Source: a virus
Length of the DNA: 45,525 bases
Virus record (IMG/VR): IMGVR_UViG_3300024222_000002
Strand: one strand, 5' to 3'
In this document: positions 6,548 to 26,442 of the stretch, piece by piece
Numbering within the stretch: the first letter of the stretch is position 1
How the letters are laid out: each line of letters starts with the position of its first letter
Notes under the pieces: generated by a model
Told to the model about the DNA's origin: nothing
The model's input: the letters and a program-made list of their open reading frames with translations, nothing else
The model's database searches: none
Made by a program: the position numbers and the translations under genes

Positions 6548-6551
<4 letters not shown>

Positions 6552-11193: not shown

Positions 11194-11339
11194 GGCTTCT
11201 TCCTCTTCGGGTAGTTCTTCATCTGCTCTTTAATCAGCTTCACGCACTCCTCGCAGTAATCAACAGGTATCTCGCCGTTCAGCCGCACGGTGTGGATTTC
11301 GCTCTTGGGCACGTTCTTGCCGCACTTAGCGCAAATCAC
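11190..11339 (-). CDS. Zinc-ribbon mini-protein (49 aa; below the ORF-track cutoff)
   Basis: Hand translation gives (V/M)ICAKCGKNVPKSEIHTVRLNGEIPVDYCEECVKLIKEQMKNYPKRKKP. GTGA overlap upstream and TTGA overlap downstream. Confidence 0.5.
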   Translation of the reverse strand: MICAKCGKNVPKSEIHTVRLNGEIPVDYCEECVKLIKEQMKNYPKRKKP

Positions 11340-11731: not shown

Positions 11732-12323
11732 GTTCTCTCCGCATCTTAACGCCTACCGCCAGAAAAGCAACGACACAAAACGCTGTGGGGACTATCCAAC
11801 CTGATTCCATCCATCCTGCATCGGGCTTCTCGATGAGCCACGCCCAGAAGAAGGCCGACAAACTCATCCACAGGATACCCAGAATGAAATACACGTCGAT
11901 TCTCTTGCCGGAGAAAAACGACACGCTCGCCAGTATGAAGCCAAGCCCGTAAAATATGGCTGCCCTGAGGAACATGAGCCAGTCGTTAAAATCCATTGTT
12001 CTGTGGATACCAAAGAAGATTGAGCGCGAGATAAACAGCGTGACGAGGACGGCAAGGGACATCCGCCTCAGGCGGTAGGTGTAGCCGAGGATAGCCTCCC
12101 AGACGACGCCCAGAGCCGCTAGGACGATAGGAATCGTAAAAGACAGGTAAATTACCGAGTAGACGCGGGAAGAGTCGCCAGCGGCGTTTACAACCCAGCT
12201 ACCGGCTATTGTGGCGAGGAGTTCAACTGCGAAGTAGAAGAAGATGATGGGATGCCTCCACGAACGCCATGCCGCAAATGAGCAAGCGCCGAGCAAGCAC
12301 CCCACTCTCAGAAGTTCAATCAA
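11724..12323 (-). CDS. Polytopic membrane protein (199 aa, about 6 TM)
   Basis: Repeated hydrophobic segments across the whole length. Confidence 0.65.
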   Translation of the reverse strand: MIELLRVGCLLGACSFAAWRSWRHPIIFFYFAVELLATIAGSWVVNAAGDSSRVYSVIYLSFTIPIVLAALGVVWEAILGYTYRLRRMSLAVLVTLFISRSIFFGIHRTMDFNDWLMFLRAAIFYGLGFILASVSFFSGKRIDVYFILGILWMSLSAFFWAWLIEKPDAGWMESGWIVPTAFCVVAFLAVGVKMRREHG

Positions 12324-12511
12324 TCGTCCTTTTTCTGCGTAGCGGAGATGGTGAACTTGGTGCCCTTGGCGACGAAGTACGCTACATCTTCGGCGGAAAG
12401 GTCAGTGAACTTGCAGATGCCGTTCGGCCCTACAAGGGTGACGGTATCTTTTGACATCTCTTTCACTTCAAAAACGCCCACGACTTCACGGGGCGGCGGA
12501 TTTCCGGACAA
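12320..12511 (-). CDS. Hypothetical protein (63 aa)
   Basis: 4-nt overlap with the downstream gene. Confidence 0.5.
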   Translation of the reverse strand: MSGNPPPREVVGVFEVKEMSKDTVTLVGPNGICKFTDLSAEDVAYFVAKGTKFTISATQKKDD

Positions 12512-12520
12512 GGTATCCTC

Positions 12521-12874
12521 CTATGGTTGCGATTTCCACTGATGCCCGTTAATGCGCGACTGCAAATACTTTATATCGCCGCGCAAACCGACCACCAGTT
12601 CGTTTAGGCTGCCTATTTTAGTCCAACTTTCTCTTTCTTGCTCGTGCAATTTATCTTCAAATTCCCTTGCCGCACGCCGCATCTCGTCTTCTAGTTCTGA
12701 ATTGAGTTTAACGAGCCGGTCGATGTCGGCTTGTTTGCCCATATCCCTTTTTATTTGCTCGATAGCAGCCGTTAGCTTATTCTCCACTTCTTCCGGCTTG
12801 AGCAACCATCGCATAAAGAGAAACGTTATGATGGGCACGACGACCGGATAGCCGTATTGAAGAACCGGGTTCAC
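12521..12874 (-). CDS. N-terminal-TM coiled-coil protein (117 aa), i-spanin-like topology
   Basis: 'YPVVVPIITFLFMRWLL' followed by a charged helical region. Confidence 0.45.
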   Translation of the reverse strand: MNPVLQYGYPVVVPIITFLFMRWLLKPEEVENKLTAAIEQIKRDMGKQADIDRLVKLNSELEDEMRRAAREFEDKLHEQERESWTKIGSLNELVVGLRGDIKYLQSRINGHQWKSQP

Positions 12875-13227
12875 GGCTTTGGCGCCAGAACTTCCTTAAC
12901 CTCTGCCGGAGGCAATGGCGCTGTCACAGGCTTGGTCATCTTCCAAACCATTTCGTTGATGACGCATTGCTTGATGAACACCCATGTGGCAGTAAAGGCC
13001 GCGCCAAGGGTCAATCCATTGATGACGAGCGTATGCGTTTCTGGCGACCAGACGTAACTGATTCCGACTGAGGCCAGAACCGCTCCAAATGCAGAGATAA
13101 ACCGCAGCAGAACGATTTTCTCTTTTGTAATCCACGGAAAGTATTTGGAGTTTTTGAGCCACTGGATAGCGGCCACAGTGATGCCGCTAGCCGTCACCGT
13201 CGTTAGAGCCAGGTTTGCATCCGCCAT
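12871..13227 (-). CDS. Three-TM small membrane protein (118 aa), holin candidate
   Basis: Three hydrophobic segments and a charged C-terminus. First gene after the fibre genes. Confidence 0.5.
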   Translation of the reverse strand: MADANLALTTVTASGITVAAIQWLKNSKYFPWITKEKIVLLRFISAFGAVLASVGISYVWSPETHTLVINGLTLGAAFTATWVFIKQCVINEMVWKMTKPVTAPLPPAEVKEVLAPKP

Positions 13228-13267: not shown

Positions 13268-15559
13268 TCATTGTAATCTTAGCCAGTTGCAGCCGCCCGC
13301 TGCGGGGCTTACAAGTTGAGCCTGCAAAATGGCAGTTGAATTAGCGGCGAGAGTTGAATTTGCTGCTCCGTTAATTGTCTGAGTTCCAAACGGAACGAGC
13401 GTGGATGCGACTGCGTTGATATTCGTAATCCTAGTTATATCATCCATCGTCAAGCCTTCGCACGATTGCAATGTGAAGTTGCCTGCACCGAAATTAAGAA
13501 TTGCTGCCTGATCTGCATCTACTTGCTGTGGCGCTACCGCCGTCCCTGCGACTGACAGAGTGCCGATAGCAGTATTTTGATTCCACGCAGTAAAAGATGT
13601 GGCCGTAACTGAGAGAGCGTACCAGCAGCCTAAACCGGCACTATTTGCGAAAGTGCTATTGTAGGTCGTCGGTGTTATTCCAGCTACCGTAATGCACTGA
13701 CCGGCCGTAAACGTATTAGCCGCAGTAGTGAATGTCATCACATTCCCCGTTTCCGAGGCTGCGGTTACTGCAACGGCGGCGGAGGCAGGAGCGACATAAA
13801 CGTTAGCTGTACTTAAATTGTGATTTCCAAAATAGCGATTGATTCCGCGTTGTGTAATCCACGTCAATACATCCGCACCGGCTTGTGTAGGGTGCAGGAA
13901 GTCTCCTTGGAAATACGAAGCATTCGATGCCGCACCATCTGCTCCCAATGCCACGGTTCCGCCTAAGTCGATACAATAATCAGCTATATTTGAACAGTTC
14001 TTCCTGATCAAAAGATTGGTGGCATTCTTAAAGGCGTCCGAACTGCCCTTATCCATCATAGTCATCACGATGCGAGACTGTCTTCCACATGGAGCCGTAG
14101 TTAATTGGCCGAAAATACCACGGATATTGCCAAAAACTGTTGTCGCCACGGAATCATTTGCTCCGGTAAGTAAAACTACCGCCGACCTTCCACCTGCGGT
14201 GCTACAGGTAGAACCACCAGTCCCTAGCGCGCCGAGATTAAGTTGGGACGCAAATATTCCGCTGATACCAAGATTGGCCACACTCCAAGTCCCGTTTAAT
14301 CCAACAGCACGGGTTGGCCATGAAATGAAACCCGCCCCCGCCGTGGTAGAATCACCGTAAGCCCAAACAAGATCACCCGTGTCGCTTCTATAGGGGAGAG
14401 GATTAATCCCCCTAGCAAGCATTGCCTGCTGTAGTGCGACATGGTTTTGAAAAATCTGCGCGCTGTTTAAGGCTCCACTATAGAAAAGAGCCGAATATAT
14501 CTTCCCATTGAAATAGGTTTGCGAAGTGTTACCCGCTCCGCCTGCCGCTCCGCATAAAGCGTACACTCCAGTCGTTTGCTTGTTTAAGCCATTCCCGACT
14601 GACCCTGAAGAGGTAGCAAATCCATTGTTATAAAGAGTATCTGCCGCACTCAAAACAATTGCTACATCCTGAATACCTGCGATTTCTGCAATCCCCTGGT
14701 CGAACCGCACTCCTCCACCGGAGAAATTGTTAACGAAACTTCCAAATGAAGTGGCGGCAGGATTGGCGGTAGTCGTCTGAATAACAATTCCTACACCGCT
14801 TGTAGCGGGTGTGCCGTTTCCCATGACTGGCGCATAAAATCCTTGAGCCAATCCCGCCGGCTGAAAGCCTATCTCTAACTGGATAGTTACGGCAGAATTT
14901 AAGGTAGCTGGTAACGCAATCGCCCCATTTCCAGGACAGCTTATTCCTCCCGTATTTGCGACCAACGTGGGGGCGGTGCCTACTGTTCCGGTCGCATCAT
15001 TTCCCGCGCCGGAGTAATCCTTTAGCGATGCAATCGTATCTGTGGGAAGGGCTTGGTAGTATCCAATTAGGCCAGTTTGATAGACTGAGGGAGAGACGGA
15101 AGAGAGGCCTCCACTGGTTTTAAGTTGTACGGTTCCAGCCGCACTAACCGTTGTTCCGACATCCTGCGTTGCACCGGAAATGGTTATGCCAGAAGAAGAG
15201 AAGTTCAGCGTTCCATTTCCTGCTGGAGGCGCTGCGCCAGAAGCCTGTACGGTGAATATCCACGTCGTTGATGCTGGAACGATATTTGCATTAGGCCAAA
15301 GCGCCATTGAGAAAAAGCCGGAATTGCTCGTGCTGGTCGGGCCAACGCAATAGTTAGAGCCAGGATTGGGATTTACGGCATTTCCGCCTACTGTGGGGTT
15401 GAGCGTTGACGGAGAAAGACAGGCTTTAACCGTTGCTGGATAATAAGCTACTCCGCTTGGGTCAACGAGCGTCCCTGAAACAAGCGTTTGGGTTTGCGCT
15501 TCTATTCTTCCTGCCAGAAACAAAAACAAAGCTGCAATCAGTATCTTTCGCATATTCAA
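13268..15559 (-). CDS. Signal-peptide-bearing fibre/depolymerase-like protein with LamG-like and SGNH (GDSL) esterase domains (763 aa)
   Basis: 'MNMRKILIAALFLFLAGRIEA|QTQ'. 'DYSGAGNDATG...FNGKIYSALFYSGALNSAQI' is LamG_3-like. SGNH blocks 'VWAYGDSTTAG', 'LLTGANDS' and 'GDFLHPTQAG' map to about 13850..14371. Confidence 0.7.
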   Translation of the reverse strand: MNMRKILIAALFLFLAGRIEAQTQTLVSGTLVDPSGVAYYPATVKACLSPSTLNPTVGGNAVNPNPGSNYCVGPTSTSNSGFFSMALWPNANIVPASTTWIFTVQASGAAPPAGNGTLNFSSSGITISGATQDVGTTVSAAGTVQLKTSGGLSSVSPSVYQTGLIGYYQALPTDTIASLKDYSGAGNDATGTVGTAPTLVANTGGISCPGNGAIALPATLNSAVTIQLEIGFQPAGLAQGFYAPVMGNGTPATSGVGIVIQTTTANPAATSFGSFVNNFSGGGVRFDQGIAEIAGIQDVAIVLSAADTLYNNGFATSSGSVGNGLNKQTTGVYALCGAAGGAGNTSQTYFNGKIYSALFYSGALNSAQIFQNHVALQQAMLARGINPLPYRSDTGDLVWAYGDSTTAGAGFISWPTRAVGLNGTWSVANLGISGIFASQLNLGALGTGGSTCSTAGGRSAVVLLTGANDSVATTVFGNIRGIFGQLTTAPCGRQSRIVMTMMDKGSSDAFKNATNLLIRKNCSNIADYCIDLGGTVALGADGAASNASYFQGDFLHPTQAGADVLTWITQRGINRYFGNHNLSTANVYVAPASAAVAVTAASETGNVMTFTTAANTFTAGQCITVAGITPTTYNSTFANSAGLGCWYALSVTATSFTAWNQNTAIGTLSVAGTAVAPQQVDADQAAILNFGAGNFTLQSCEGLTMDDITRITNINAVASTLVPFGTQTINGAANSTLAANSTAILQAQLVSPAAGGCNWLRLQ

Positions 15560-18510
15560 TTCACCGTAGGCACCACGACTGCCGGATTAGAAATACCGAT
15601 ATTGTGCGCCGTCTTTACAAGCGGCATGGCCACGGATGCTTGACTGAGCGTTATAGTGCATTGAGTGGCACTGCATCCGCAAGGAACATTTATGCCGTCA
15701 AACCAGCATTGCGTGGTGGAGGTAAATCCAGTGCCCGTCGCCGTGACGGTAAGATTGGGCACAAACAGTATGCCGTCCTGAGACCAGCCTTTGGCACTTA
15801 GATAGGAGTTGGCTGGCGAAAGTTTTGTCAGCACGGGGACTGGAGCCGCCGCAGGCAAAGGCAATACATTCATCACCATCTGCACCGCTGGAGCCGTGGG
15901 AATGACGCCTGTCCCTGTGAGAGAAACGTTGTCTGGGCTTGTCGATGCATCTGTCGTGAAGCGCAGCGTATCAGAAAGAGCGCCCAGCACATGGGGCGTA
16001 AAAGTCACGGTGATATTGCAGGAAGCTGATGGGGCTAGTGTTGAACCGCAAGTCGTGTTGGTGATGGCGAAATGCGTTCCCGTCACGATGGTTACGGAAG
16101 CTATGTTGAGCGTTGCGCCGCCTGAGTTTGTAAGCTGGATGACGCAAGGATTTAGCGAGACATTGCAGGAAGTATCGGGGGAGTTCTGCGGGGAGTTGCC
16201 AAAAGCAGCGGAGGTCGGGTTAAGGGAGACTCCCGGAACCAATGCCCCGCTTGTCAGAAAGTAGTTGTCGATATTAGTGTTTGCCGTAGCTACCGCAGAG
16301 ATGTAGTTTCCATAAGGAGGCCCATGCAGGGCGAGTTCTCCGCCACAATTCCTTGCAGCCGTTGGCGGCTGGCAGACAACTACTGCTGTCGTTGTCTCGG
16401 CAGGGGTATAGAGATTGCCTCTGATTGTCTCGTAGCCCCAGGCATGTTTGTCTGACCAATCCGAATAGTGTTCCCATGACCAGTACCCAAGGTAGGGATG
16501 GAACGTACCGCCTGTATATTTCTTGGCGGTCAGAGCATCAGCCGAAGATTGGAAATCCACGCCTCTAGCAGTCTGATTGGCCGACCCGCCAACGTTGTTG
16601 TCGTCAAGATAGAGATTGCAAGTCGTGGGAGAGCCGCTGTTTGTCTGCGTGTAGACGAAGTTCGTAGACGTGACGCTAGTAGCCCGGAATTGCAAGCGAT
16701 TATAGGAAGAGTCCGCGCAATTCACGTCAAAGAGGTCAGACGTGTTGATTTTATTAGGCGTAGCCACAACGACAGTCACCGTCGAGCCAACACTGGTTGT
16801 GGGGCTATTCACCCATTGAAATTCTGAATCCCTGTTAGAAACCTTGTAGAGAACTGCAAAAATAGGCTGATTCGGGCAGGCCGCGTTCACTCCATCAAGA
16901 GTTCCTTGCGCTATATCTCCTTGCGCCGCTGCATACATCCAGGCGTCAGCGTTGCCGCAGAATCCAGCCATGACATAAGGGTCTGGAACCATCGTCCAGG
17001 TTCCTAGAACGGTCGGGCCTAAATACATCGGGCAGCCAGTGAAGCTCTTTGTCGCCGCCCACGTGCAGATGGAGTTTTTAATCGTACTGCTGTAGAGACC
17101 GGCAATGTACTGGGTGAAGGCGTTCACGTCCGTTTTTACGTTGGCGGGGAGGCTTGTCAGTTGCACAGGGTCCGTTCCGCCACCCGTTCCGCAATAAGCA
17201 GAATGCCCTGCCCTGCAATCTTCGTCCATGAGGCCTGTACCAATGCCCCAGCCGTTCTGGACGTAACGGGCGGTGATGGTCGCTCCGTTAGCCGGTGGGA
17301 GTGCAAATGTCACGCTGATAGCGCCGGTCGTGTAATTGACCGTACCGGAAATAGTCGCCCCGAATAGAGACGTGCCCGCTGAATTGAAAGCCCCCGAAGC
17401 TCCTCCGCCTACCAAAGTCCCATTGAGGAAAACGCCAACGCTCCATTTTGTGACAGGGATATGACTTAATGTTGCCGCGAATGTGGTCGTAGAGGCATTG
17501 CCGGTTCCAATCGTATCTTCCGCTACGGACGAAGCGCAGGTAACTGGAACCGTCCCCACACAGGTACCGGAGGAATCAAACGTCGTGAAAGATGAACCCC
17601 ACGAAGTATTGAGAGCGCCGATGGTTCCATACTTCGCTACCAGATTATCTCTCCACTTCTTTTTCCAGTAGACCGCTCCGTCAGGATAAATCACTCCACG
17701 CGAAGAGTTTGCCCAGTTGAGTGAAGCCAGAAAGAAAGGCAGGTACCCGCAGCGAAAGTCATTGTTTCCTGTAGGAGCGGTGTTTGCCTGATTGCCTGCT
17801 CCGAAACAGTGCGTGTTGTCGGAATCGTCATAAGAAAACCCCAACAAATAGCCTTTGTTTGCCGCGCTGGAACTTCCGAGTTCAATCGCACCTTGGTCAT
17901 TGGTCAAAACGTTAGCAGAGAGTGTCGCCCATTTAGGGTCAGGATAATCGGCCACTCCGCCGCCTACATTCGTGTAGCCTGCCCAGTTTGGGCTGGTGAT
18001 TGAAATGAGATTCTTGACAGGGCCGCTGCCCCATGTCGTTGACTGGCTGGTCTGCGAATAGGTGGACATGATCTGAAACGCTACAAAAGGCATCTTCTGC
18101 GTAGAACGAGCGGGTTTGGCGTTGATAGTGACGTAAGTAGCAAGAGTATTGAGGCCAAAGGCTTTTACGCGTGGCATTTCTTCCTGAATCCAGTTGGTTG
18201 TACTTCCGTATTTGGCGGTGATGTAAGTCAGATAGCTGGTGCTGCTTTCATCCGTTCCGCCAACGAGTGTTGCATCGAAACCAATCGTGCCGCGCGTAAA
18301 AGGAAAAACGTGAGCCAATGGCGTGCAGAATACCGCTTGCTGGTCTGTTCCAATCGTCACTGTCGTGATCTTGAACGCAGTATTGGTGTTTGTGCAGGGA
18401 ACTGCTGTTAGTCCAAGGTAGGTATCAAGAGACGGCGGAGTGTAGGTCCATTGCGCTGCCGCTACGGACGGAATGAGAAGCAGAAAAGCCAGTCTTAGTA
18501 AAGGGTGCAT
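15556..18510 (-). CDS. Signal-peptide-bearing glycoside-hydrolase-like protein with a choice-of-anchor-D/PapD-like module (984 aa)
   Basis: 'MHPLLRLAFLLLIPSVAAA|QWT'. 'LVAKYGTIGALNTSWGSSFTTFD' resembles a clan GH-A (GH42-type) segment. 'IQLTNSGGATLNIASVTIVTGTHFAITNTTCGSTLAPSASCNITVTFTP' is choice-of-anchor-D-like. Confidence 0.55.
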   Translation of the reverse strand: MHPLLRLAFLLLIPSVAAAQWTYTPPSLDTYLGLTAVPCTNTNTAFKITTVTIGTDQQAVFCTPLAHVFPFTRGTIGFDATLVGGTDESSTSYLTYITAKYGSTTNWIQEEMPRVKAFGLNTLATYVTINAKPARSTQKMPFVAFQIMSTYSQTSQSTTWGSGPVKNLISITSPNWAGYTNVGGGVADYPDPKWATLSANVLTNDQGAIELGSSSAANKGYLLGFSYDDSDNTHCFGAGNQANTAPTGNNDFRCGYLPFFLASLNWANSSRGVIYPDGAVYWKKKWRDNLVAKYGTIGALNTSWGSSFTTFDSSGTCVGTVPVTCASSVAEDTIGTGNASTTTFAATLSHIPVTKWSVGVFLNGTLVGGGASGAFNSAGTSLFGATISGTVNYTTGAISVTFALPPANGATITARYVQNGWGIGTGLMDEDCRAGHSAYCGTGGGTDPVQLTSLPANVKTDVNAFTQYIAGLYSSTIKNSICTWAATKSFTGCPMYLGPTVLGTWTMVPDPYVMAGFCGNADAWMYAAAQGDIAQGTLDGVNAACPNQPIFAVLYKVSNRDSEFQWVNSPTTSVGSTVTVVVATPNKINTSDLFDVNCADSSYNRLQFRATSVTSTNFVYTQTNSGSPTTCNLYLDDNNVGGSANQTARGVDFQSSADALTAKKYTGGTFHPYLGYWSWEHYSDWSDKHAWGYETIRGNLYTPAETTTAVVVCQPPTAARNCGGELALHGPPYGNYISAVATANTNIDNYFLTSGALVPGVSLNPTSAAFGNSPQNSPDTSCNVSLNPCVIQLTNSGGATLNIASVTIVTGTHFAITNTTCGSTLAPSASCNITVTFTPHVLGALSDTLRFTTDASTSPDNVSLTGTGVIPTAPAVQMVMNVLPLPAAAPVPVLTKLSPANSYLSAKGWSQDGILFVPNLTVTATGTGFTSTTQCWFDGINVPCGCSATQCTITLSQASVAMPLVKTAHNIGISNPAVVVPTVN

Positions 18511-21500
18511 GTGCTTCCCCTCAGAATCGTCACAGTACCAGCCCCGCCTGCCGCTGCTTGGATTGCAAACGTTCCTCCTGCTCCTGGTTCTTCAATCGTT
18601 CCGTAGATGCTGAACTGATAGTTCGTGGAAGTGGCGTTTGGCGTTGCGCCGGTCAGCACAGCCTGGTTTCCGCTGGAAGTTGTCGTGACTGTCGCGTCCG
18701 TGCTCGTACCGGTCAGTGTCGTAAAGATTCTTGCGCTGGCCATGAGACTGGTTGGCGCAACGGACGAGTTAACGGAAAGGGCCAAAGTAGCCGTAGAAGC
18801 GGAAGAGGAATATACTCCACGGCATTCATAGCTATAGTTTTGAGCCGAAGCAGGCAGCGTCCAAGTCTGAAATGTAGAAGGCGTCGTGGTGGCGTTGGTG
18901 TAGCTCGCAGTGACTTGCGGCTGATTGTTCGCGCTTAGAAGCAGTCCGCCGCGACTCCCGGCAGAGCCAGACCCGATACCGATAAGGCTTGCAGCCATAC
19001 GGCTGACCGTTCCATCAATACCGCCCGTATCCGTGTTGCCGGTATTAAAGAAAGCCACGCAACGAGTGCCGGAAGCGCAGGACATGCCGCCAGCGCTGAA
19101 CTGCGCGTTTTCATTGCCCTGAGAGTTTATTCCCAGTTTTCCGCCAGCAGGGACATAGATGTTTCCATTGAAATTAAATCCGTTGTTTGTGTTCGTGGAA
19201 GAGGACGTGTTTTTTACGGCCACAAGCGATTGAGCGTTTAGGCCAGTTCCCGGAGTAAGCTGTACCTGGAAGCATCCTTCTGTCGATGCCCCCGCTCCAG
19301 TCCATTCCTGCCCGCAAGCCAGGTTAACGATTGGCCCGTTTTGCGGCGTTGTAACCGTAGCCGCTGTGTTGTTCGTAATCTTCCATGCATTTGATAAGGC
19401 AGTCGCATAATCCCATTCGGAGAGATGCGTGCCCATCGTCAGAGCAAGATTTCCAGTAGCGGGGTTGGTAATCAAATCCCATGCCGAAGAACCTCCGCCA
19501 CCGCCACTGCTCGAAGTTCCACAAAGGATGCCTGTCGTAAGGCTGAAGTTTAGGTGCTGGCCTGCGGTATCGAGACAAGGCGGGAATGCGGCGAAGGTCG
19601 GGACCTTCAAAGAAAGCCATGAAGGAGTGTTGTCCGAGGTGACATGCCCTAACCAGCCGGGGAAGATGACACTGGAACCACCTGCTCCACTGCCGTCAAT
19701 CGTATTCGGGGAAGTCGCTGTAAGAGTCAAATTACCGGAATTGCCATTGAACGCCTGAAACGGCATGTTCGAGCCGAAGTTAGATGCAATGGCCGGTAGA
19801 GTGACTGTGGCCGTAGTCCCGCCAGTACAATTTAATCTCGAGGCTCTGTCTGAATAAAGTAGTGTATAACCGGAACAGGTCTGAGTGTTGACTGGAATAC
19901 CAAGCAGGGCATCCGAGGGCGCAACAGCAGCCGAAGCCGTGACTGCATGAACGCGCACATATGTCCCGTTTACAGTCTGCGGAGCATTGCCCCCTAGGGT
20001 CGAAGAAGTCCCCGCGCCCGTGTAATAGGTATCCGCATATTGCGGTTCAGGCGTGACAGTTATGCTGCCTGCCGAGGAAGTGGCTTCCGTCTGGCAGTTC
20101 CCTCCCGTACAGGTAAATATTTTCCCTGATAGGACGTTGATCGTTGCGCTGGCTGCCCCGTCCAATGTGCCGGAAGTAGTATTGATGGTCAGTACGTTTC
20201 CGGGGACGTTGTCCACGCGCAAAATCGTCCAATGCGAACCTACGATTGCAGGATTCAGAGAGATAGTGAAGCCGCCAGCACTAGCATCGGCTGGAATGAT
20301 GTTGTCGTTCGCCGTCGGTGTATAAGAACTCGTTTTTGATGCCGTTGGAGTACTAGCGTATCCGCCTCCTAGAAACTTTGGCGCGGCTATGCCTTGCGTC
20401 CCCGGCATAAGCATCGTTGGTCCGCCGGTTGGAATGGTTTCCGAGACTTGCCCGCAAGTGCCTGCCGCTGTATCCGAAAAGGAAGTGGTCGTAATCAGCC
20501 CGCCGCAAAGGATTGCGAATCCGCCACCAGTGCTTCTGTATAGGTTGTAGCCCGTGGGATTACCGGGGGCGGCAATCCAGCTTAGATTGACTGTCTGGTT
20601 TCCGCCCGTTGTCGTGAACGACGCCGGAGCAGAATATCTCCCCTCTCCGCCGTTCTGCCAGACCGGAACTACTCTGTAGGAAATGGTTCCGACAGGTACG
20701 GAGCCGCCTGCCGCGACAGCTCCAGTCGGCGGAGCAAGCGCCGGAGCGTTTATGAATATCGAGTGCAGAGTTCCAACCCATATGTCGCCTTCGATAATCT
20801 GCTGCAACAAAGGACTTCCGGGTGACATGGTGGAGCTGTGCCCAGTGCCAGTTATTATTGCGGCATTTCTGGTATATCCAGCGCCCATTGAAACCCCTAT
20901 GACTGGAGTTGAAAACCCACTGACAAGCGGAGGAACGCTCACACCATCATTGCTGGGGCCTGAAGCCAAGTCTTCTACGGTTATTTTTGAGCCAACAGCG
21001 TTTAGATTGGCGAACAGCGGCAGACCTACCGTATCTATGGCCGCATAGCCGAGATGGATAAACTGATTTGCTCCACCACCTACCATCGTAATCAGCGGAG
21101 TTATTCCACCATTCATGTAGAGCGTTTTGATGGGGATTGTATCCCCGAACGGCTGAGAAGGAGTCTTGAATACCAGGCCTCTTCCGGCGAGAGAGATGTT
21201 CTCCATGAGGTACCCGGCAGGGCTTGCATAAAAAGCTGGAGTCGTACTATCGCCTACGCTTACCGTTGGAGAAGAAAACAGCCAGTTCCCTTTCATGGGA
21301 ACTTTTGTTGCTCCGCTGGCTCCTGCGGGTGCGCCGCGAGAGACTAGCCCAATCCCCATGTTCCCGCCGATTACAAAATTCATGCCTCCAAGCGTGCCGC
21401 TGGGAACCCCGGAAAGGTCCATAAGCATGTAGACTTTGTTGTTCGTCCCAGTGGCGTTAGTCCACTGAATGGAATCCATGTTGATTGCGCCATTAGCTTG

Positions 21501-23858
21501 GTAGGCTCCGGGATAGGCCGGTCCTGTCGAGATGGTTGTGTAACCCTGCCAAGCAGAAGAAGGAACACTTCCATTAGCCGGTGGACATGCTCCAGACCAT
21601 TTCCCCCCAGAGGCTAATTGCACGGTGTCGTTCAGAACCACCGTACCCAATTGGCAGATGTCGTACTGCGAAGGCATTTGCATGTAGGAATTGAAGACCA
21701 TGTTTCCGTTGGAAACAGTAGAGACCGGGATGTTCAAAGGAGCATTCGCGGATGCGGCCAAAGCCGTCAAAAGATTCGGCACGTTGTCGAACAGCACGAC
21801 TTGATTCGTTACGGAAGTCGAAGCCGCATTAGCAAGTGTGAAGCTGGTTCCCGGTGCTCCACTGACAATCGTTGTGACGAGTTCATCATTCTGTGCGGAG
21901 CCTGCTGTGCAAGGATTAGTGCCAGCCCAGTAAGGAACGAGGAAGTTATCCCGCAAAGGTGAGCCAAGGTCATCCCATGCCAAGGCCATGTCGGTGATGC
22001 TGGCTGCTGTGTTGTCGGGAGCGGAGATTCCGATAGGGACGTATCCAGCCCCGCCACGGTCTGAGCAAATGATGTATTGGTGCGCTCCAGCGACATGGCT
22101 CCAAGAAACAAGATTTTCATTGAACCAGTGAACCGTGCCGCCTGTTGCGGAAGTCGTTGCTCCTGAAGCCGTGTCAAATCCACTCGTATAAGTGAAGTGG
22201 GTGTTGTCTGGAACCGTGGCCAGAATATACGTGCCGGAGAAACTTCCATCACTGACCTGATTGATGATGACAGCGGCTCCGGCAATCAGTTCGTGCACGC
22301 CTGAAGTGAGGCAAGTGACAGTCTGACCGGAACGGGCGCAGGAAGTAATGCCAACCGACCGCGCACCAAGATTAGCTTTGCCGTTCGTGATGGTCGTTGC
22401 GGCGCTCGCTACTGTCATGCCCCGGCCCTTGTCTACGGCCACAATCTTGTAGTTGTAAGTCGTGGCTCCGGTTGGCCCTGTTACCACAACCGTTGTGCCT
22501 GTAGGTCCAGCGGCTAGGCTGGGAACGACAGTTGGGACTGGGGCAGTCATGGACTGAGGAGCACCGCCCCCAACGATTGTGATGCCGTCGCCATTCGTAA
22601 AGCACTGACTGCTTGCCTGAGCAGGGCAGTTGCTTGTGGAGACGGTCAGAGAAGTAGACGTGCTGTTGATCGTTCCGGTAATTCCAGGTACGCCCGGAAT
22701 AAAGCGGGAGTCTAGTGCCCTGACACCATAAGCCCGTGGGTCCACATAAGGGTTAGGCCCTTTGGGAATGGAATCGTCGCCAATCGAAAGAGCAGTCCCG
22801 TTCTCGCAGACGTTCGATGCCCCGAAAGAGCCGGAAGCGTTCTTTTGCAGGCAGTTTAGAGGGTTAGCTGGTGTACCGCCTCCGCCGCCTCCCGTTCCGC
22901 CGCCTATTCCTATCCACAGAGCGCCTGTCCAGGAATACAAAACTCTGTTGCAGTGCGAGGCTGTCGTATCGAAGGTGAAGCCTTGCGGGTTGCTGACGTT
23001 TCCAGGGAAGGCAAATGTCCTTCCGCCAACGCCATCCTGACAGGCATTAAGAATGAACTGCGTGCCTGCTCTTCCGGTAGTCGTAAAGACGGAAGAAGTC
23101 ACGTTTCCAGTGAGCGTCATGTCGAAAACGGCGGAACGCGAATTGGAAAGTGTAGGAGTGGCTGAAAACGTTACGGGGTAATAGTCGAGTGCCCCGTCCG
23201 GTATGTTGTCCAGCTGATGCCAGTTCGTGCCGTTATAAACAAAAGTAATCTTGTTCTTGGCTAGCGGCAGAATCCTGAAAGCGAAATCATCCGCAAAGAT
23301 GAAGTTACCGGGCCAAACTACCGTGTGACCGCCTGTTGCGTCCTGGTCAAAGGAAAACCGCAAGAGATTTCCGTTTACCGGAGTCCCGGTAATCGTGATG
23401 GCCGTGATGTTGGCTGTCAGTACCGTGGAATAGCTGGCATTCTGGGTTGCGGCAAAAGACGGCGTGGTAGAAAAGGTTACGGAACTATTCGGCAGTCCTC
23501 CAGCAGATGCGCACGAAGCCCCTACGATGCAAGGCAGAACGACGGTAAATGGCCCATGCGCAACGACGTTTAACCCCGTGACGGTGTATTCATAAGTTCC
23601 AGGAGCGGCCCAAAAGGAGAAGTTTCCGAAGGCATCCGTGATGATGGGATTGGATTGGGCAATTGTAAGGGCTTGGTCCTGAAAGATATTCACCGTAGGC
23701 GAGCAAGGAACGCCGGGAGAACCAGCCGTACAGACAGTGACTTGCGCTCCGCCAACTGGCCTTCCTGTCGAGCCAAGAATGATGGCCTGATAGTTACTTC
23801 CCTGCCCATAAGCCAGAGCAGGGAAAAGAAGCGCCAGTGCTAGAAACCATCGTTTCAT
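18495..23858 (-). CDS. Signal-peptide-bearing giant fibre/tailspike-like protein (1787 aa)
   Basis: 'MKRWFLALALLFPALAYG|QGS' followed by a carboxypeptidase-regulatory-like 'ILGSTGRPVGGAQVTVCTAG'. FN3-like 'YNYKIVAVDKGRG' and 'GYNLYRSTGGGF'. Poly-Gly linkers. ATGA-coupled to the upstream gene. Confidence 0.6.
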   Translation of the reverse strand: MKRWFLALALLFPALAYGQGSNYQAIILGSTGRPVGGAQVTVCTAGSPGVPCSPTVNIFQDQALTIAQSNPIITDAFGNFSFWAAPGTYEYTVTGLNVVAHGPFTVVLPCIVGASCASAGGLPNSSVTFSTTPSFAATQNASYSTVLTANITAITITGTPVNGNLLRFSFDQDATGGHTVVWPGNFIFADDFAFRILPLAKNKITFVYNGTNWHQLDNIPDGALDYYPVTFSATPTLSNSRSAVFDMTLTGNVTSSVFTTTGRAGTQFILNACQDGVGGRTFAFPGNVSNPQGFTFDTTASHCNRVLYSWTGALWIGIGGGTGGGGGGTPANPLNCLQKNASGSFGASNVCENGTALSIGDDSIPKGPNPYVDPRAYGVRALDSRFIPGVPGITGTINSTSTSLTVSTSNCPAQASSQCFTNGDGITIVGGGAPQSMTAPVPTVVPSLAAGPTGTTVVVTGPTGATTYNYKIVAVDKGRGMTVASAATTITNGKANLGARSVGITSCARSGQTVTCLTSGVHELIAGAAVIINQVSDGSFSGTYILATVPDNTHFTYTSGFDTASGATTSATGGTVHWFNENLVSWSHVAGAHQYIICSDRGGAGYVPIGISAPDNTAASITDMALAWDDLGSPLRDNFLVPYWAGTNPCTAGSAQNDELVTTIVSGAPGTSFTLANAASTSVTNQVVLFDNVPNLLTALAASANAPLNIPVSTVSNGNMVFNSYMQMPSQYDICQLGTVVLNDTVQLASGGKWSGACPPANGSVPSSAWQGYTTISTGPAYPGAYQANGAINMDSIQWTNATGTNNKVYMLMDLSGVPSGTLGGMNFVIGGNMGIGLVSRGAPAGASGATKVPMKGNWLFSSPTVSVGDSTTPAFYASPAGYLMENISLAGRGLVFKTPSQPFGDTIPIKTLYMNGGITPLITMVGGGANQFIHLGYAAIDTVGLPLFANLNAVGSKITVEDLASGPSNDGVSVPPLVSGFSTPVIGVSMGAGYTRNAAIITGTGHSSTMSPGSPLLQQIIEGDIWVGTLHSIFINAPALAPPTGAVAAGGSVPVGTISYRVVPVWQNGGEGRYSAPASFTTTGGNQTVNLSWIAAPGNPTGYNLYRSTGGGFAILCGGLITTTSFSDTAAGTCGQVSETIPTGGPTMLMPGTQGIAAPKFLGGGYASTPTASKTSSYTPTANDNIIPADASAGGFTISLNPAIVGSHWTILRVDNVPGNVLTINTTSGTLDGAASATINVLSGKIFTCTGGNCQTEATSSAGSITVTPEPQYADTYYTGAGTSSTLGGNAPQTVNGTYVRVHAVTASAAVAPSDALLGIPVNTQTCSGYTLLYSDRASRLNCTGGTTATVTLPAIASNFGSNMPFQAFNGNSGNLTLTATSPNTIDGSGAGGSSVIFPGWLGHVTSDNTPSWLSLKVPTFAAFPPCLDTAGQHLNFSLTTGILCGTSSSGGGGGSSAWDLITNPATGNLALTMGTHLSEWDYATALSNAWKITNNTAATVTTPQNGPIVNLACGQEWTGAGASTEGCFQVQLTPGTGLNAQSLVAVKNTSSSTNTNNGFNFNGNIYVPAGGKLGINSQGNENAQFSAGGMSCASGTRCVAFFNTGNTDTGGIDGTVSRMAASLIGIGSGSAGSRGGLLLSANNQPQVTASYTNATTTPSTFQTWTLPASAQNYSYECRGVYSSSASTATLALSVNSSVAPTSLMASARIFTTLTGTSTDATVTTTSSGNQAVLTGATPNATSTNYQFSIYGTIEEPGAGGTFAIQAAAGGAGTVTILRGSTCTLY

Positions 23859-25162
23859 TGAAATAGCCCCTTGCTGCCGTTTATCTGCAGCTTTTGCTTC
23901 TCTGCTACATAAGCGGGAATGTCCGCGTCAGCCATGCCGTTGGGAATTGAAATGTCAGGAATCCCCGGAGTTTTTGCCCACCTGATACCCATTGCGTTAG
24001 AAATTGTGTACGGCTTTCCCTCTGACGAAAAGCTGGTGACTTCCTTCGGGGGATTGAATCCTTCGGGCGGCGTGTAAATCACCTTGTTGCCGATTTGCTG
24101 GAGCTGCGTGCCAGCGCCCGGTGTCCCGCTTTTCCCCATGCCCACTAGTTCATTGCGCGGAACAGAACCCATGTACTTCGGGTTGATTGGAGAAACTGCT
24201 TCGTTTGGCTCCGGCAACTGAATCACGCTGCCATACGGGATTTCACCTTTTGGCGTGAAAGGATTCGTGGCAATCGGTGCAGCCTGTGCTTGTGGAGAAA
24301 ATGGGTCGCCACGAAGATTGGAAGGCAAACGAGTCGGCAATTTAGAAGAAAAACCGGGATTCTCAGGACTACCTACTTCCGGCTCGACTGCATTGAGTTT
24401 GTCGAATTTTGCTGCAATGCGATTTATGGAATTTATCTCGGCCCCGCGATTCGCGTAAAACTCATCAGCGGCAGGAAGCATTGCACCTGGATAGACAGGT
24501 TTCGGGGAAGGCTTGAACATTGCTTCCATCATGGATGGCCCCATTCTATAACCAGCTGCGCCGCCAGCAATCGCCCCGTAAGGACTTCCATGCGATAGCC
24601 CGTAAGCACTGCCTATTGCTGCGCCGCCAATCTGAGAAGCCGTTCTGACGCCAGGACGCATATTGCCATCAGGTGAAAATGCCGCATCGCTGATAGCACC
24701 TTTTGTTCTTCTCAGTGCTTCCGGGACAAGAGGAGATGCAGCTTGAACCATAGGAGCCGCTGTTGCGCCCCAAACTCCTGAAGTATCTCCGCTACGTGCA
24801 GCTTCTTCCATGGCGGAAGCGTTCGTAAAAGGAAGTGCAGCCCCGACGCGGTAAGCTAGTCCTGCACCCTCTTTTTTCCTCCGCTCATCAGCTTGGCGCG
24901 AAGCATCGGCCATTGCGGACTTGGCTTCTAAATCCATTCCGGGATAAGGACTAACGCCAGAAGGAATGAATGCTTGACCGAAATTGGATGCAAAACCTCC
25001 ACCTTCTCGGTCACTTCCCGGCCTATCTTTCTCGAACTGTGTTGGCTGAGAAGAAAGCAGTAGCGCAATCTTCTTTTGCATCGGATGGCCAGTGGGCAGC
25101 TTCCCCGCAATCTCTTGCAGGTCCGCAACGTCTTGCTGGCTCAGATTCTGGTCATCAGCCAC
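23855..25162 (-). CDS. Virion/internal protein candidate (435 aa)
   Basis: Position between the internal-protein block and the fibres. Glycine-zipper segment 'IGGAAIGSAYGLSHGSPYGAIAGGAAGY'. Confidence 0.4.
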   Translation of the reverse strand: MADDQNLSQQDVADLQEIAGKLPTGHPMQKKIALLLSSQPTQFEKDRPGSDREGGGFASNFGQAFIPSGVSPYPGMDLEAKSAMADASRQADERRKKEGAGLAYRVGAALPFTNASAMEEAARSGDTSGVWGATAAPMVQAASPLVPEALRRTKGAISDAAFSPDGNMRPGVRTASQIGGAAIGSAYGLSHGSPYGAIAGGAAGYRMGPSMMEAMFKPSPKPVYPGAMLPAADEFYANRGAEINSINRIAAKFDKLNAVEPEVGSPENPGFSSKLPTRLPSNLRGDPFSPQAQAAPIATNPFTPKGEIPYGSVIQLPEPNEAVSPINPKYMGSVPRNELVGMGKSGTPGAGTQLQQIGNKVIYTPPEGFNPPKEVTSFSSEGKPYTISNAMGIRWAKTPGIPDISIPNGMADADIPAYVAEKQKLQINGSKGLFQ

Positions 25163-26442
25163 TACTGCACTCCTGTAATTCTGCCGTTGGCGTCACGGAT
25201 AATCTTTAGTCCGCCCGTTCCGCTTGCTGGCGTGTCTCCTTCGGGGGAGAAGTCTTTGGGGAACTGTACCTTATCAGTCAATCCGGCTTGTGAAGCTGAG
25301 TCGTGCGCTTGCTGCCAAGCCGTATGCCTTTGCGCATGCGCTAGCTTCATCATGGAATCCATCTGAGGTTTGGTTAGAACAACGCCGCTCAAATAGCCAT
25401 CGCTATCGAACTTGGCAGCCACGGTTTGCAGCCACGGAGCCGAAGCCGTTGCTTCATGGAGAATATCTTTCGTGATTCGTGCGCCTTTCTGAAGTCCTAG
25501 AGTCATGCCGATATGGTTCGTCAAAAGATTCAGCATGGCCTGCTGGTCGTTCTTTTCCGTTGCATCCTTGTAGGAGCTGTTCATAGAACGCAACCGGAAG
25601 TCAGCACCGCGAGCCGTAACCAAATCCTTCGTAACCTGCTTGGCATTCTCACTCTCAAACGCTTTATCACCTGATGCAGTCGGAGGAACAGGCAACTTTG
25701 ACTTACCCATATCTCTGATAACTGCGCCTGTCTTCGTATCTACCAGTACTTTGTGGTTCTGTCCGCCAATATCCAAATCGGTCAGAGTGCCGCCCTTTGT
25801 ATCAGTTTCTTTGGTGTTCTTTATTTTCTCCAGCGCATCGAGCGGCTTCATGCCGCCAGCCGTCAGGGATTCAAATGTTTGCTCATCCGGCGTCTTGGCA
25901 GGAGGATTCTCTTTCGCATTGGCGAGCTTATCCCAATAGCCTTCCTGCGCCGTGCGATGTGTAATCTCAGAGCCGATATTCTGGGCGTTAAGAGCCGCCA
26001 GTTTTTGTGCTTGGTCCTGCTTGATGGCGTCTTCAGTCAGCCCGTATTGCTTTGTGAGTCCTGCAATCTGCCGCTGCCGCTGATAGTATCCGCTGATGAT
26101 GCTGCCAAGCTGGGGATTCCTCTGAGACATGATTGCGCCCAGAACGTGCCGAATCGTTCCGCCAACTCCAACTTCCGGGGGATTGTAGGCCTCGCTGAGC
26201 CTTGCACTGATGTCTCTAAGTTGCGGCTGATAGATGTCTCGCGTCACGTCGGGTTGGCCGCTGGTATTCGGATTGAATGCAGGCGACAAGGAAACTCCGC
26301 TACGAGCATTCGCTGGAGCTGGCTGCATGGCATCGTCAGGAGCTGGATTTTCGTCACCAGCGTAGCTAGAACTTCCACTCGTCCACGGGCTGTATGCCCC
26401 TGCGAAGGTCTGCGGATTCAGGAGTTTTCTAATTGTTGCCAT
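25162..26442 (-). CDS. Virion/internal protein candidate (426 aa)
   Basis: Position only. No motif recognised. Confidence 0.4.
   Translation of the reverse strand: MATIRKLLNPQTFAGAYSPWTSGSSSYAGDENPAPDDAMQPAPANARSGVSLSPAFNPNTSGQPDVTRDIYQPQLRDISARLSEAYNPPEVGVGGTIRHVLGAIMSQRNPQLGSIISGYYQRQRQIAGLTKQYGLTEDAIKQDQAQKLAALNAQNIGSEITHRTAQEGYWDKLANAKENPPAKTPDEQTFESLTAGGMKPLDALEKIKNTKETDTKGGTLTDLDIGGQNHKVLVDTKTGAVIRDMGKSKLPVPPTASGDKAFESENAKQVTKDLVTARGADFRLRSMNSSYKDATEKNDQQAMLNLLTNHIGMTLGLQKGARITKDILHEATASAPWLQTVAAKFDSDGYLSGVVLTKPQMDSMMKLAHAQRHTAWQQAHDSASQAGLTDKVQFPKDFSPEGDTPASGTGGLKIIRDANGRITGVQ

Follow-up and report, generated by a model that had tools for sequence, protein, structure and literature searches.

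Probable Sec-type signal peptides on tailspike-like and carbohydrate-active late proteins of an Acidobacteriota soil phage

Why do the giant proteins encoded at the tail-fiber position of a tailed phage begin with signal peptides? To our knowledge, tailed phages are assembled in the cytoplasm in every case studied, and the known tailspikes are assembled there too and have no signal peptide; the literature we searched contained no tailspike with one. The window, the 45,525-nt stretch of DNA analyzed here, covers a complete phage genome, which has a terminal repeat of 122 bp and carries terminase, portal and HK97-type head protein genes. Three ORFs of 1787, 984 and 763 aa (P1, P2 and P3) occupy 10.6 kb, or 23% of the genome. 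An earlier sequence-only reading had described them as start-stop coupled to one another and to an upstream virion gene, and we found all three on the minus strand at the positions given there:

18495..23858, minus strand: P1, a predicted tailspike-like pre-protein of 1787 aa (ORF and translation, 70 homologs, AF2 and Foldseek)
15556..18510, minus strand: P2, a pre-protein of 984 aa with a signal peptide, a predicted GH50-like glycosidase fold and then Ig-like domains (translation, AF2, Foldseek)
13268..15559, minus strand: P3, a pre-protein of 763 aa (761 aa from the ATG at 15553) with a signal peptide, an N-domain, a ConA-like lectin domain, a predicted SGNH esterase domain and C-terminal domains (translation, Pfam)

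Our best reading is that P1, P2 and P3 are core late genes for recognizing and degrading host-surface polysaccharide, and that their products are in all probability genuine substrates of Sec and signal peptidase I, exported and cleaved.

The start/stop overlaps and common strand make the three genes members of the late virion/lysis operon, as had been proposed. At 23855-23858, the sequence ATGA overlaps the stop of a 435-aa gene with the ATG of P1. The ATG of P2 (18510) lies 16 nt before the stop of P1 (TAA, 18495-18497), and TTGA at 15556-15559 forms the P3 junction. Translation of P3 more likely starts two codons in, at the ATG at 15553, and a 761-aa P3 product is called in other assemblies. 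Shine-Dalgarno-like sequences precede the ATG of P1 (AAGGGG, 8 nt spacing) and that of P2 (GAGGGG, 6 nt spacing); the ribosome-binding site of P3 consists of a weak GGTG only. Inspection of the sequence revealed no alternative start near the predicted cut sites of the three proteins. An autonomous moron transcription unit is disfavored, because P1, P2 and P3 overlap their same-strand neighbors and have a GC content (0.51-0.55) like that of the remaining genome. The following late genes bear on the interpretation of the locus:

23855..26442, minus strand: two upstream late genes, of 435 and 426 aa, with Cys-free, Gly/Ala/Pro-rich products
10792..13227, minus strand: lysis cassette directly downstream of P3, with membrane proteins of 118, 117, 199 and 131 aa and a DUF5675 protein
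10792-11193, minus strand: the DUF5675 protein, a member of the lysis cassette
31069..32028, minus strand: g319, a 319-aa virion-module protein and candidate signal-less fiber or adaptor (weak PHROG matches, a domain in common with P1)

The 435- and 426-aa proteins had zero Pfam or PHROG matches; homologs of their genes hold the same position in related phages, and the products are likely internal or ejection proteins. The DUF5675 position represents the endolysin slot, because an SLT lytic transglycosylase replaces this gene in a near-identical genome (L108). Profile searches gave no tape-measure, tube or sheath match in the window, and this absence is the sole basis for the earlier label 'podovirus', which is unconfirmed.

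The N-termini of P1, P2 and P3 have an n-h-c, signal-like organization in front of a glutamine, and the sequences read as they had been quoted (slashes mark the predicted cut):

23805..23858, minus strand: P1 signal peptide, MKRWFLALALLFPALAYG/Q, residues 1-18 (direct sequence reading)
18454..18510, minus strand: P2 signal peptide, MHPLLRLAFLLLIPSVAAA/Q, residues 1-19 (sequence reading; a lone low-pLDDT helix in the AF2 model)
15497..15559, minus strand: P3 signal peptide, (LN)MRKILIAALFLFLAGRIEA/Q (sequence reading)

A positive n-region, an uninterrupted hydrophobic core of 10-15 residues and an A-x-A motif are what SRP and SecA recognize. The positive n-region is MKR in P1, MHPLLR in P2 and MRK in P3, and Lys or Arg is present in the n-region of nearly all homologs. 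The h-regions have a mean Kyte-Doolittle value of 2.5-3.2 across 11-12 residues. The c-regions read A-Y-G/Q (P1), A-A-A/Q (P2) and I-E-A/Q (P3), the isoleucine at position -3 of P3 being acceptable but weaker under the A-x-A rule. Lipoprotein (SPase II) and Tat signals were ruled out, as none of the three N-termini features a lipobox cysteine at +1 or a twin-arginine motif. We also scored every ORF start in the window for n-, h- and c-regions with a crude home-made heuristic, not a trained predictor: among plausible genes, only P1, P2, P3 and a lipoprotein-type ORF (9409-9834, plus strand) scored high, and the remaining virion genes had no signal-like score.

These elements are signal peptides in form, and their conservation across the lineage shows that they are functional and selected. 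The related loci (n=110) are mostly prophages, and their hosts are Acidobacteriota (Terriglobia), the phylum that had been guessed from the DNA. Conservation of the hydrophobic N-termini had been named as a check on the signals: the P1 N-domain is present at all 110 loci, and 107 of them combine a hydrophobic extension with a small-x-small/Q site and, within that domain, a Cys pair; the remaining three are without extension, site and Cys pair alike, as are the homologs P0031 and P0019. A hydrophobic N-terminus followed by small-x-small/Q is found in 56 of 70 P1 homologs and in 14 of 15 P3 homologs. For P2, the same combination occurs in 27 of 89 homologs, which are the 27 closest; close homologs of P2 all end the signal in ..A/QYTPPS or ..A/QWTYT. 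The recurrent glutamine at +1 contrasts with an overall Gln frequency of 3.7%. In alignment A2, Gln19 of P1 is invariant, and the signal region preceding it varies in length and sequence; homologs at 30-60% identity keep the hydrophobicity, the positive charge of the n-region and A-x-A/Q despite indels and substitutions. In signal-less phage homologs, the start methionine aligns 0-2 residues from the predicted mature glutamine. The predicted mature N-terminus of P1 is therefore equivalent to that of an ordinary fiber.

Cysteines are numerous in all three proteins. P1, P2 and P3 contain 30, 24 and 12 of them, each an even number, and these are closely spaced as consecutive pairs (15 close pairs in P1). 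The p values for pairing are 5e-5 for P1 (permutation), 0.003 for P2 and 0.11 for P3. About three-quarters of the 70 P1 homologs have an even count with the same spacing, and six neighboring virion proteins contain zero Cys. Because paired cysteines are also found in the cores of the signal-less homologs P0031, P0023 and P0019, Cys pairing is not diagnostic for periplasmic folding.

P1 models as a tailspike-like beta-helix protein, consistent with the earlier view of it. Its mature part is organized as follows:

23529..23804, minus strand: first mature domain, residues 19-110, beta-rich, with a Cys43-Cys52 loop (alignments A1 and A2)
22884..23501, minus strand: residues 120-325, two tandem beta-sandwich repeats (BLAST self- and cross-matches; AF2 pLDDT 65-90)
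20259..22811, minus strand: residues 350-1200, conserved core with a predicted beta-helix, inserted domains and an Fn3-like module (AF2 pLDDT mostly 80-96)
18498..20258, minus strand: residues 1201-1787, variable C-terminal part, common to few homologs

The AF2 model of residues 1-1200 (pLDDT 75) has phage tailspikes as its best fold matches (PDB 6e1r, E 8.7e-5; in BFVD, the tail spike of Salmonella phage FSL SP-029, E 3.6e-10), with further Foldseek matches to CBA120 TSPs and an endosialidase; TM scores are low because the model is multidomain. The segment 350-1200 is the most widely common region among the 70 homologs, and its fold matches tailspikes and depolymerases. This core is also present in signal-less phage fibers adjoining SU10_adaptor genes. 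The C-terminal part has a weak precomputed match to PF26209 (Phage_phiTE_241_C). In the N-domain, C43, C52, N70, P71, D75, G78 and N79 vary little or not at all (alignments A1 and A2). Signal-less phage fibers have this same domain at their extreme N-terminus, there without the Cys loop, and the types of N-domain are shuffled between P1-like and P3-like proteins. The N-domain, for which AF2 confidence is low, matched no known docking domain; a docking role is suggested by its position only. The description of this domain as carboxypeptidase-regulatory-like is unsupported, given zero Pfam matches and an AF2 model in which residues 19-110 are beta-rich at pLDDT 40-66. One P1 homolog, P0004, is found in a cell-like context with no phage genes nearby.

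P2, in its AF2 model (pLDDT 86), looks like a globular secreted glycosidase and not a fiber. Foldseek aligned it to the GH50 exo-beta-agarases 4bq5, 5z6p and 6xj9 (E 1e-11 to 1e-9, probability 1.0) with a target TM of 0.45-0.48, around 0.46, over ~830 columns at 10-11% identity. By this comparison the model matches the GH50 fold, a (beta/alpha)8 barrel with a CBM-like domain, but no Pfam or PDB sequence match for GH50 was obtained; we therefore describe P2 as having a predicted GH50-like fold and not as a GH50 member. A HYDIN/VesB Ig domain (Pfam) covers residues 789-865. Distant homologs on contigs of 0.2-0.6 Mb are lipoproteins with lipoboxes and He_PIG domains. Because these cellular relatives are lipoproteins, the P2 fold already works outside the cytoplasm. 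P3 is assigned by its sequence as an SGNH esterase: Lipase_GDSL_2 (PF13472) scores 33.7 bits over residues 400-563 against a cut-off of 32.9, and the catalytic motifs are readable as GDS of block I in 'AYGDSTTAG' and DxxH of block V in 'GDFLHP'. Residues 299-369 give a weak Laminin_G_3 match. With P2 and P3 carbohydrate-active by fold comparison and Pfam, the proposal of a polysaccharide-degrading set was reasonable.

The earlier statement that no other receptor-binding protein (RBP) could be identified in the genome is not supported in that form. The g319 product has weak PHROG matches to tail-fiber and virion structural proteins (E 1e-4 to 1e-7, spanning no more than 60-80 residues) and a domain of ~50 aa in common with P1, and in prophage relatives its homolog lies immediately upstream of the signal-bearing fiber gene. 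In ~100 prophage relatives, the signal-bearing P1-type gene sits within the structural module, on the same strand, between homologs of g319 and g228/g967; throughout the lineage the gene is present and syntenic, in or adjoining the virion module. Homologs of P2 and P3 are present in only some relatives, and two of these (L006 and L008) carry P3-like signal-bearing genes between terminase and portal, a position more typical of cargo genes. Prophage relatives also feature an extra signal-bearing gene of ~650 aa beside the fiber gene, on the opposite strand. Thus, the sequence-only interpretation holds for the form of the signals, the late operon, the host phylum and the enzyme set, and is unsupported for the CarboxypepD_reg assignment and for the lack of another RBP candidate.

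How could exported spikes end up on a particle built in the cytoplasm? Each protein would be made as a pre-protein with a Sec-type signal peptide and would pass through the inner membrane, where signal peptidase I would cleave it directly in front of the invariant glutamine, which may then cyclize to pyroglutamate. The oxidizing periplasm would be the folding site, where the paired cysteines could form many short-range disulfides. Tailed capsids would meanwhile assemble in the cytoplasm as usual. When the holin/endolysin/spanin-type cassette opens the inner membrane, mature spikes would meet fiber-less particles and dock by their N-domains. Such docking at lysis is expected for P1 and P3, which have fiber-type N-domains, and P2 may either be carried on another spike or function unattached. 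Purified P22 tailspikes join P22 heads in vitro; here, joining would have to succeed during the short period of lysis or post-dilution. We infer export, cleavage and disulfides and, especially, the joining to virions after export; the chain as a whole, up to attachment, is a tentative proposal, the most probable of those considered but slightly less likely than not. With somewhat more reserve, we extend it to a large lineage of Acidobacteriota tailed phages and to three or more unrelated contigs that share this fiber N-domain, which would likewise route tailspikes or fibers via Sec, let them mature in the periplasm and join them to fiber-less particles at lysis. The literature searched offered no precedent for periplasmic spikes joining cytoplasmic particles and no description of signal-bearing giant tailspike-type phage proteins.

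Known systems resemble parts of this scheme. Like P22 gp9, CBA120 TSP1-4, the tailspike of Acinetobacter phage P1 (6e1r) and K1F endosialidase, protein P1 is predicted to combine an N-domain, an enzymatic beta-helix core and a variable C-terminus and is encoded late, before the lysis genes. Esterase and glycosidase activities are common on phage spikes. In contrast to the known tailspikes, every member of this lineage has a cleavable-looking Sec signal and a predicted disulfide loop in the first domain. Signal-peptide and SAR endolysins, spanin lipoproteins, T5 Llp and lambda Lom and Bor are likewise phage pre-proteins that use host Sec and act in the envelope. However, they are small and non-structural, whereas the proteins described here have 760-1790 aa, are tailspike- or CAZyme-like and come from lineage-universal late-region genes at the RBP position. 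Inoviridae pIII and pVIII are virion proteins with Sec signals that are incorporated outside the cytoplasm, but those virions are extruded at the membrane, unlike a phage with terminase, portal and HK97-type head protein. Finally, Pantoea stewartii WceF (PMC7949094) and Vibrio RbmB are trimeric or beta-helix tailspike-like enzymes that carry an export signal at the N-terminus and trim the exopolysaccharide of their own cell; WceF has a Tat signal and is encoded in a chromosomal EPS cluster, in contrast to the Sec-type signals and phage late operon of P1, P2 and P3.

The existence of exported tailspike-like EPS hydrolases in bacteria, among them the Tat-exported WceF (PMC7949094), lends weight to a different explanation, which is quite possible although we doubt it: P1, P2 and P3 would be exported but never become virion parts. 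Late in infection they would strip or modify the EPS, capsule or LPS of the infected cell as periplasmic or secreted enzymes, P1 being a beta-helix depolymerase, P2 a GH50-like glycosidase and P3 an SGNH deacetylase. Progeny would thereby be released from matrix and debris (receptor destruction), or superinfecting phages would be excluded, and the true RBP would be a virion protein lacking a signal, for instance the 319-aa or the 967-aa product. The signal evidence serves this explanation equally well, and the topological problem of periplasmic proteins joining cytoplasmic particles does not arise. It also fits the secreted-glycosidase fold of P2 with its lipoprotein relatives, the cell-like surroundings of P0004, the flexible position of P3-like genes between terminase and portal, and the weak tail-fiber similarity of the signal-less g319. 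Yet almost a quarter of the genome would be spent on non-structural enzymes, the P1-like gene is universal and syntenic in the structural module of its ~100 relatives, the mature N-terminus matches the N-domain of signal-less phage fibers, and N-domain types are shuffled as RBP docking domains are. A convincing alternative RBP was not found, the matches of g319 being short and weak.

Export itself would be unnecessary if the hydrophobic helix were an inner-membrane tether, a trimerization or chaperone handle or a membrane-active segment during infection, with conventional virion assembly in the cytoplasm. Such a reading, which we consider very unlikely, agrees with the cytoplasmic assembly of the studied tailed phages, with the ordinary signal-less fibers of the P1 core family and with their paired cysteines, which suggest that disulfide-capable fibers can be cytoplasmic. 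However, an SRP/SecA-type segment would need a special mechanism to escape export, and a type-II signal anchor would still leave most of the protein on the periplasmic side. The N-domain Cys loop occurs in 107 of 107 signal-bearing loci and in no signal-less ones. An invariant glutamine at +1 behind a signal of variable length makes sense only if the bond before it is cut; together with signal-less homologs that begin at the mature N-terminus, this disfavors the uncleaved N-terminal anchor that had been suggested. Slimmer still is the chance that P1, P2 and P3 are host-derived cargo (morons or lysogenic-conversion genes) that reached the fiber position by chance, are expressed from the prophage and alter the lysogen surface outside the lytic programme: exported moron proteins commonly adjoin tail-fiber genes, as lambda Lom does (PMC12309495), the relatives are prophages and carry the opposite-strand ~650-aa gene, and Porphyromonas gingivalis prophages encode signal-bearing Q-rule proteins (PMC10367356), but the three genes are translationally coupled on the strand of the late operon with genome-like GC, P1 has a tailspike fold and a universal, syntenic gene type (P2 and P3 having homologs in some relatives only), and no integrase was found among the tested early genes of the window.

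If export followed by joining at lysis is correct, the host-recognition proteins of these phages leave the cytoplasm before they meet the particle, which is not known from the assembly of tailed phages. Export of the RBPs of a whole lineage would mean either an extracytoplasmic assembly step or a class of large depolymerases that the phage secretes to pre-condition the cell surface. Spikes stabilized by disulfides would become possible and may aid persistence in acidic soils, and the RBPs of a dominant soil phylum would escape RBP finders and structural-protein annotators in which signal-bearing proteins are set aside as 'host-like' or 'secreted'. Even if the proteins never join virions, devoting 23% of a genome to Sec-exported tailspike-like and CAZyme enzymes for the cell envelope or EPS would be unusual. 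The prophages in Terriglobia MAGs provide a direct experimental handle.

The choice of residue after the cut may reflect the host. In Bacteroidetes, SPase I substrates follow a Q-rule, with glutamine at +1 (PMC5837995; PMC10653852), and P. gingivalis prophages encode signal-bearing proteins of this type (PMC10367356), in which predicted SPase I cleavage likewise exposes a glutamine that matches the habit of the host phylum; these differ in being from Bacteroidota, with no assigned function and no tail-fiber link. The literature examined contained no description of such a rule for Acidobacteriota. In the Acidobacteriota loci, other signal-like ORFs also favor glutamine at +1 (25 of 85), which suggests, though only suggests, a habit parallel to the Bacteroidetes Q-rule.

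The signal peptides predicted at the N termini of three giant late proteins, P1 (1787 aa), P2 (984 aa) and P3 (763 aa), are a real, conserved and unexpected feature of this phage. The ORFs, their lengths, overlaps and N-terminal sequences match the description in the sequence-only reading, and good Shine–Dalgarno motifs lie at the right spacing before P1 and P2; for P3, the ATG at 15553 is the more likely start. When all potential ORF starts in the window were scored crudely for n, h and c regions, P1–P3 and a lipoprotein-type ORF at 9409-9834 (plus strand) alone were conspicuous among plausible genes. The window is a complete phage genome, with an exact 122-bp direct repeat common to both ends. 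This terminal repeat and the occurrence of an identical P1 on 13 independent contigs rule out misassembly or host contamination. The late operon on the minus strand runs from the large terminase through a portal-sized gene, the major head protein and more virion genes to P1–P3 and the lysis cassette:

40855-42411, minus strand, large terminase (PF04466)
33955-35247, minus strand, major head protein (phrog_14242)
18495-23858, minus strand, P1
15556-18510, minus strand, P2
13268-15559, minus strand, P3
within 230-10004, plus strand, early genes RecT, HNH and DNA methylase

Searching 50,697 GenBank phages by tblastn gave zero matches to the head protein or P1, which indicates that the lineage is uncultivated. 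Tape-measure, tube and sheath genes went undetected in the window, the nozzle-sized and portal-sized proteins had no noteworthy counterpart in PDB or PHROG, and PDB sequence searches with P1, P2, P3, the portal and the virion-module proteins g967 and g319 returned nothing useful. The podovirus layout proposed earlier is no more than a plausible guess at the morphotype. Upstream of P1, two genes encode Cys-free, Gly/Ala/Pro-rich products of 426 and 435 aa with no family matches, for which ‘putative internal proteins’ is a reasonable label. The genes downstream of P1–P3 encode small membrane proteins and, at 10792-11193 (minus strand), a DUF5675 protein. In an otherwise near-identical genome (L108), an SLT lytic transglycosylase gene (22609-23037) occupies the slot of the DUF5675 gene, which identifies the downstream block as the lysis cassette; the DUF5675 protein itself is suggested to be an endolysin. 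Its HWG...EGCI motif resembles a YkuD/L,D-transpeptidase-type active site.

Nearly all of the 70 homologues of P1 open with M-K/R, followed by a hydrophobic stretch, A-x-A/G and then Gln. The same pattern is found in 14 of 15 P3 homologues and in close P2 homologues. Such conservation rules out a chance origin of the signals. Across 13 aligned N termini, the signal region is free in sequence and length, whereas Gln19, Cys43, Cys52 and the remainder of the first mature domain of P1 are invariant, a pattern that would be expected of a cleaved targeting peptide. This alignment has no conserved Met, Val or Leu around the cut site, which leaves no downstream start that would skip the signal. Judged from these sequences, P1–P3 are very probably genuine Sec/SPase I substrates that are exported late, cleaved before Gln and oxidatively folded. 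The mature N terminus of P1 would then read pyroGlu-GSNYQAIILGSTGR.

Comparison with signal-less homologues shows what the signal has been added to. Among 110 loci that encode the N-domain, 107 combine a hydrophobic N-terminal extension with a small-x-small/Q site and a pair of cysteines inside that domain; the loci are related by descent and not independent. The other three (L144-146) lack all three features, as do the signal-less homologues P0031 and P0019. A MAFFT alignment places the first residue (Met) of the signal-less proteins 0–2 residues from the predicted mature Gln and shows a shorter, Cys-free loop where the signal-bearing proteins have V-C-x7-8-C. The signal-less homologues are ordinary phage fibre genes; those for P0031 and for a further homologue, P0023, adjoin SU10_adaptor-domain genes in other phages. 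Because the signal-less starts align to the mature Gln and lie in ordinary fibre contexts, mature P1 corresponds to a conventional fibre. Together with the three-feature association, this alignment indicates that the signal is a discrete add-on, travelling with the disulfide-type loop.

The cysteines of P1 (30), P2 (24) and P3 (12) are even in number and arranged in tight consecutive pairs, with median spacings in P1 of 15 residues inside pairs and 80 between them (permutation p = 5e-5 for P1, 0.003 for P2 and 0.11 for P3). Six neighbouring virion proteins contain no cysteine, and the head protein has one. About three-quarters of the 70 P1 homologues share the even count and the spacing. Since core cysteines are paired in signal-less homologues too, we dropped pairing as a marker of periplasmic folding: in general it fits extracellular disulfides and is not diagnostic. 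The N-domain loop is the only cysteine feature that tracks the signal.

P1 is built of modules: the signal (residues 1-18) leads into the N-domain (19-110) and a pair of beta-sandwich repeats (120-325), and residues 350-1200 form a broadly conserved core ahead of a variable C terminus that weakly matches Phage_phiTE_241_C. The CarboxypepD_reg-like domain proposed from sequence could not be confirmed in P1, as Pfam gave no match to P1 even at E = 10. An AF2 model of residues 1-1200 reached a pLDDT of 75, mostly above 85 in the core and only 40-66 in the N-domain. Its best PDB matches are phage tailspikes and depolymerases (6e1r, CBA120 TSP2 and TSP4, endosialidases and Depo32), and BFVD matches include the tail spike of Salmonella phage FSL SP-029 (E = 3.6e-10) and a Bcep22 pectin-lyase-like protein. 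The P2 model, a confident one (pLDDT 86), shows a GH50-like fold that matches exo-beta-agarases (E = 1e-11, TM ~0.46), with HYDIN/PapD-type Ig domains after it. Close relatives of P2 are of phage type, with type I signals and 16–26 cysteines; distant ones, on contigs of 0.2–0.6 Mb, are lipoproteins that contain He_PIG domains but only a few cysteines. P3 exceeds the Pfam GDSL_2 threshold, retains GDS and DxxH motifs and carries a ConA-like domain. The recurrence of its N-domain type in some P1-core homologues indicates that N-terminal modules have been exchanged between distinct enzymatic bodies, a habit typical of the docking domains of receptor-binding proteins (RBPs).

An N-domain profile run against one genome per GTDB species retrieved 159 relatives. 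Of these, nearly all of the top 80 are assigned by MAG binning to Acidobacteriota (Terriglobia: Acidiferrales, Acidoferrum, Acidipila, Sulfotelmatobacter), many of them on contigs of Mb size; a handful of short contigs placed in other phyla are probably binning errors. By tblastn with the window virion proteins, practically all of these loci are prophages belonging to the lineage of this phage, with homologues of the portal, the head protein, g211, g228, g319 and g967 at 30–47% identity. The signal-bearing fibre gene is embedded in the structural module and shares its strand; at L063, for example, the genes run head, g211, g319, fibre, g228, g967. Viral contigs added 36 loci. Three of the related loci, L139, L142 (a 97-kb contig) and L143, encode signal-bearing fibres yet have no detectable homologues of the window virion proteins, so the trait is not confined to one structural lineage. 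In many prophage relatives, the signal-bearing fibre gene has beside it, within the structural module, an extra gene of ~650 aa that lies on the opposite strand, encodes a signal peptide of its own and looks like a true moron:

L036, 5614-7590, minus strand, extra signal-bearing gene
L039, 14132-16231, minus strand, extra signal-bearing gene

Others are at L053, L066, L069, L073, L090-92 and L105, and several such loci show a tblastn match to a P2 segment of ~80–130 aa at this position. Close relatives carry a P3-like signal-bearing gene of ~800 aa between the large terminase and portal (L006 3373-5865, L008 3313-5769, also L002, L005 and L017), an unusual place for a fibre or esterase gene. 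The 228-aa virion-module protein that adjoins the fibre gene in prophages (32029-32715, minus strand) is kept across the whole lineage; it has nine cysteines, including CxxC pairs, and zinc-ribbon matches.

How exported proteins would reach the virion is less certain. We tentatively, and only slightly, favour a route in which P1, and probably P3, are virion spikes that would dock on fibre-less particles once holin and endolysin breach the inner membrane. Arguments for it are that the gene holds a universal place in the structural module, that its product is equivalent to signal-less fibres, and that tailspikes are well known to complete heads in vitro. An extracytoplasmic step in tailed-phage assembly is possible, at somewhat less than even odds. 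Somewhat more doubtful is that P1–P3 act as free periplasmic or secreted enzymes modifying the polysaccharides of the infected cell, with another protein, such as g319 (31069-32028, minus strand), as the RBP. The glycosidase-like fold of P2, its cellular lipoprotein relatives, a homologue in a cell context (P0004) and the terminase–portal position of P3-like genes in some relatives all speak for free enzymes. A structural N-terminal helix is hard to reconcile with the variable signal and invariant mature domain, and non-export of P1–P3 is disfavoured as improbable, their being moron cargo as slightly more so.

Sec signals are known from phage endolysins, spanins, exclusion lipoproteins, morons and filamentous-phage coat proteins. 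The moron Lom carries one (PMC12309495), and WceF, a bacterial exported tailspike-like glycanase, has a Tat signal (PMC7949094). Our literature search found no signal peptides on tailed-phage fibres or spikes, including as a lineage-wide feature; the nearest report concerns P. gingivalis prophages, in which proteins of no known function bear signals obeying the Bacteroidetes Q-rule (PMC10367356, PMC5837995). The Tunturi paper, on the first isolated Acidobacteriota phages, makes no mention of signal peptides or fibres. Tailspike and Sec signal, each known separately, are combined here. In a rough survey of acidobacterial loci L027-L106, spurious ORFs included, Gln stood at +1 in 25 of 85 signal-like ORFs shorter than 600 aa, which hints that a Bacteroidota-like Q-rule may extend to Acidobacteriota.

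Several other features of the genome merit record. The 141-aa ORF at 9409-9834, the next-to-last gene of the plus-strand arm near its convergence with the end of the late operon, has a textbook lipoprotein signal (MKKYAVLLLVLIPFLAGC) and no Pfam match; possible identities are a superinfection-exclusion lipoprotein and an o-spanin-like protein. Both genome ends (1-198 and 45400-45525) are made up of tandem 15-bp repeats (GCGAACCTCGGAGGC), which lie within the 122-bp terminal repeat and, in the plus-strand frame from base 1, encode a pentapeptide-repeat protein, so its gene crosses the junction of the circular assembly; the product could be a DNA-mimic or anti-defence protein. The early arm of L107, a variant of the present phage, contains an Acb2/Tad1-hairpin family gene (anti-CBASS/anti-Thoeris sponge; 24412-24633, minus strand), at whose position the window has different small genes. 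Finally, a perfect-looking (GGCTCC)x31 hexanucleotide array (6015-6200, plus strand) inside the ORF at 5982-6551 gives an early protein a long Gly-Ser repeat.
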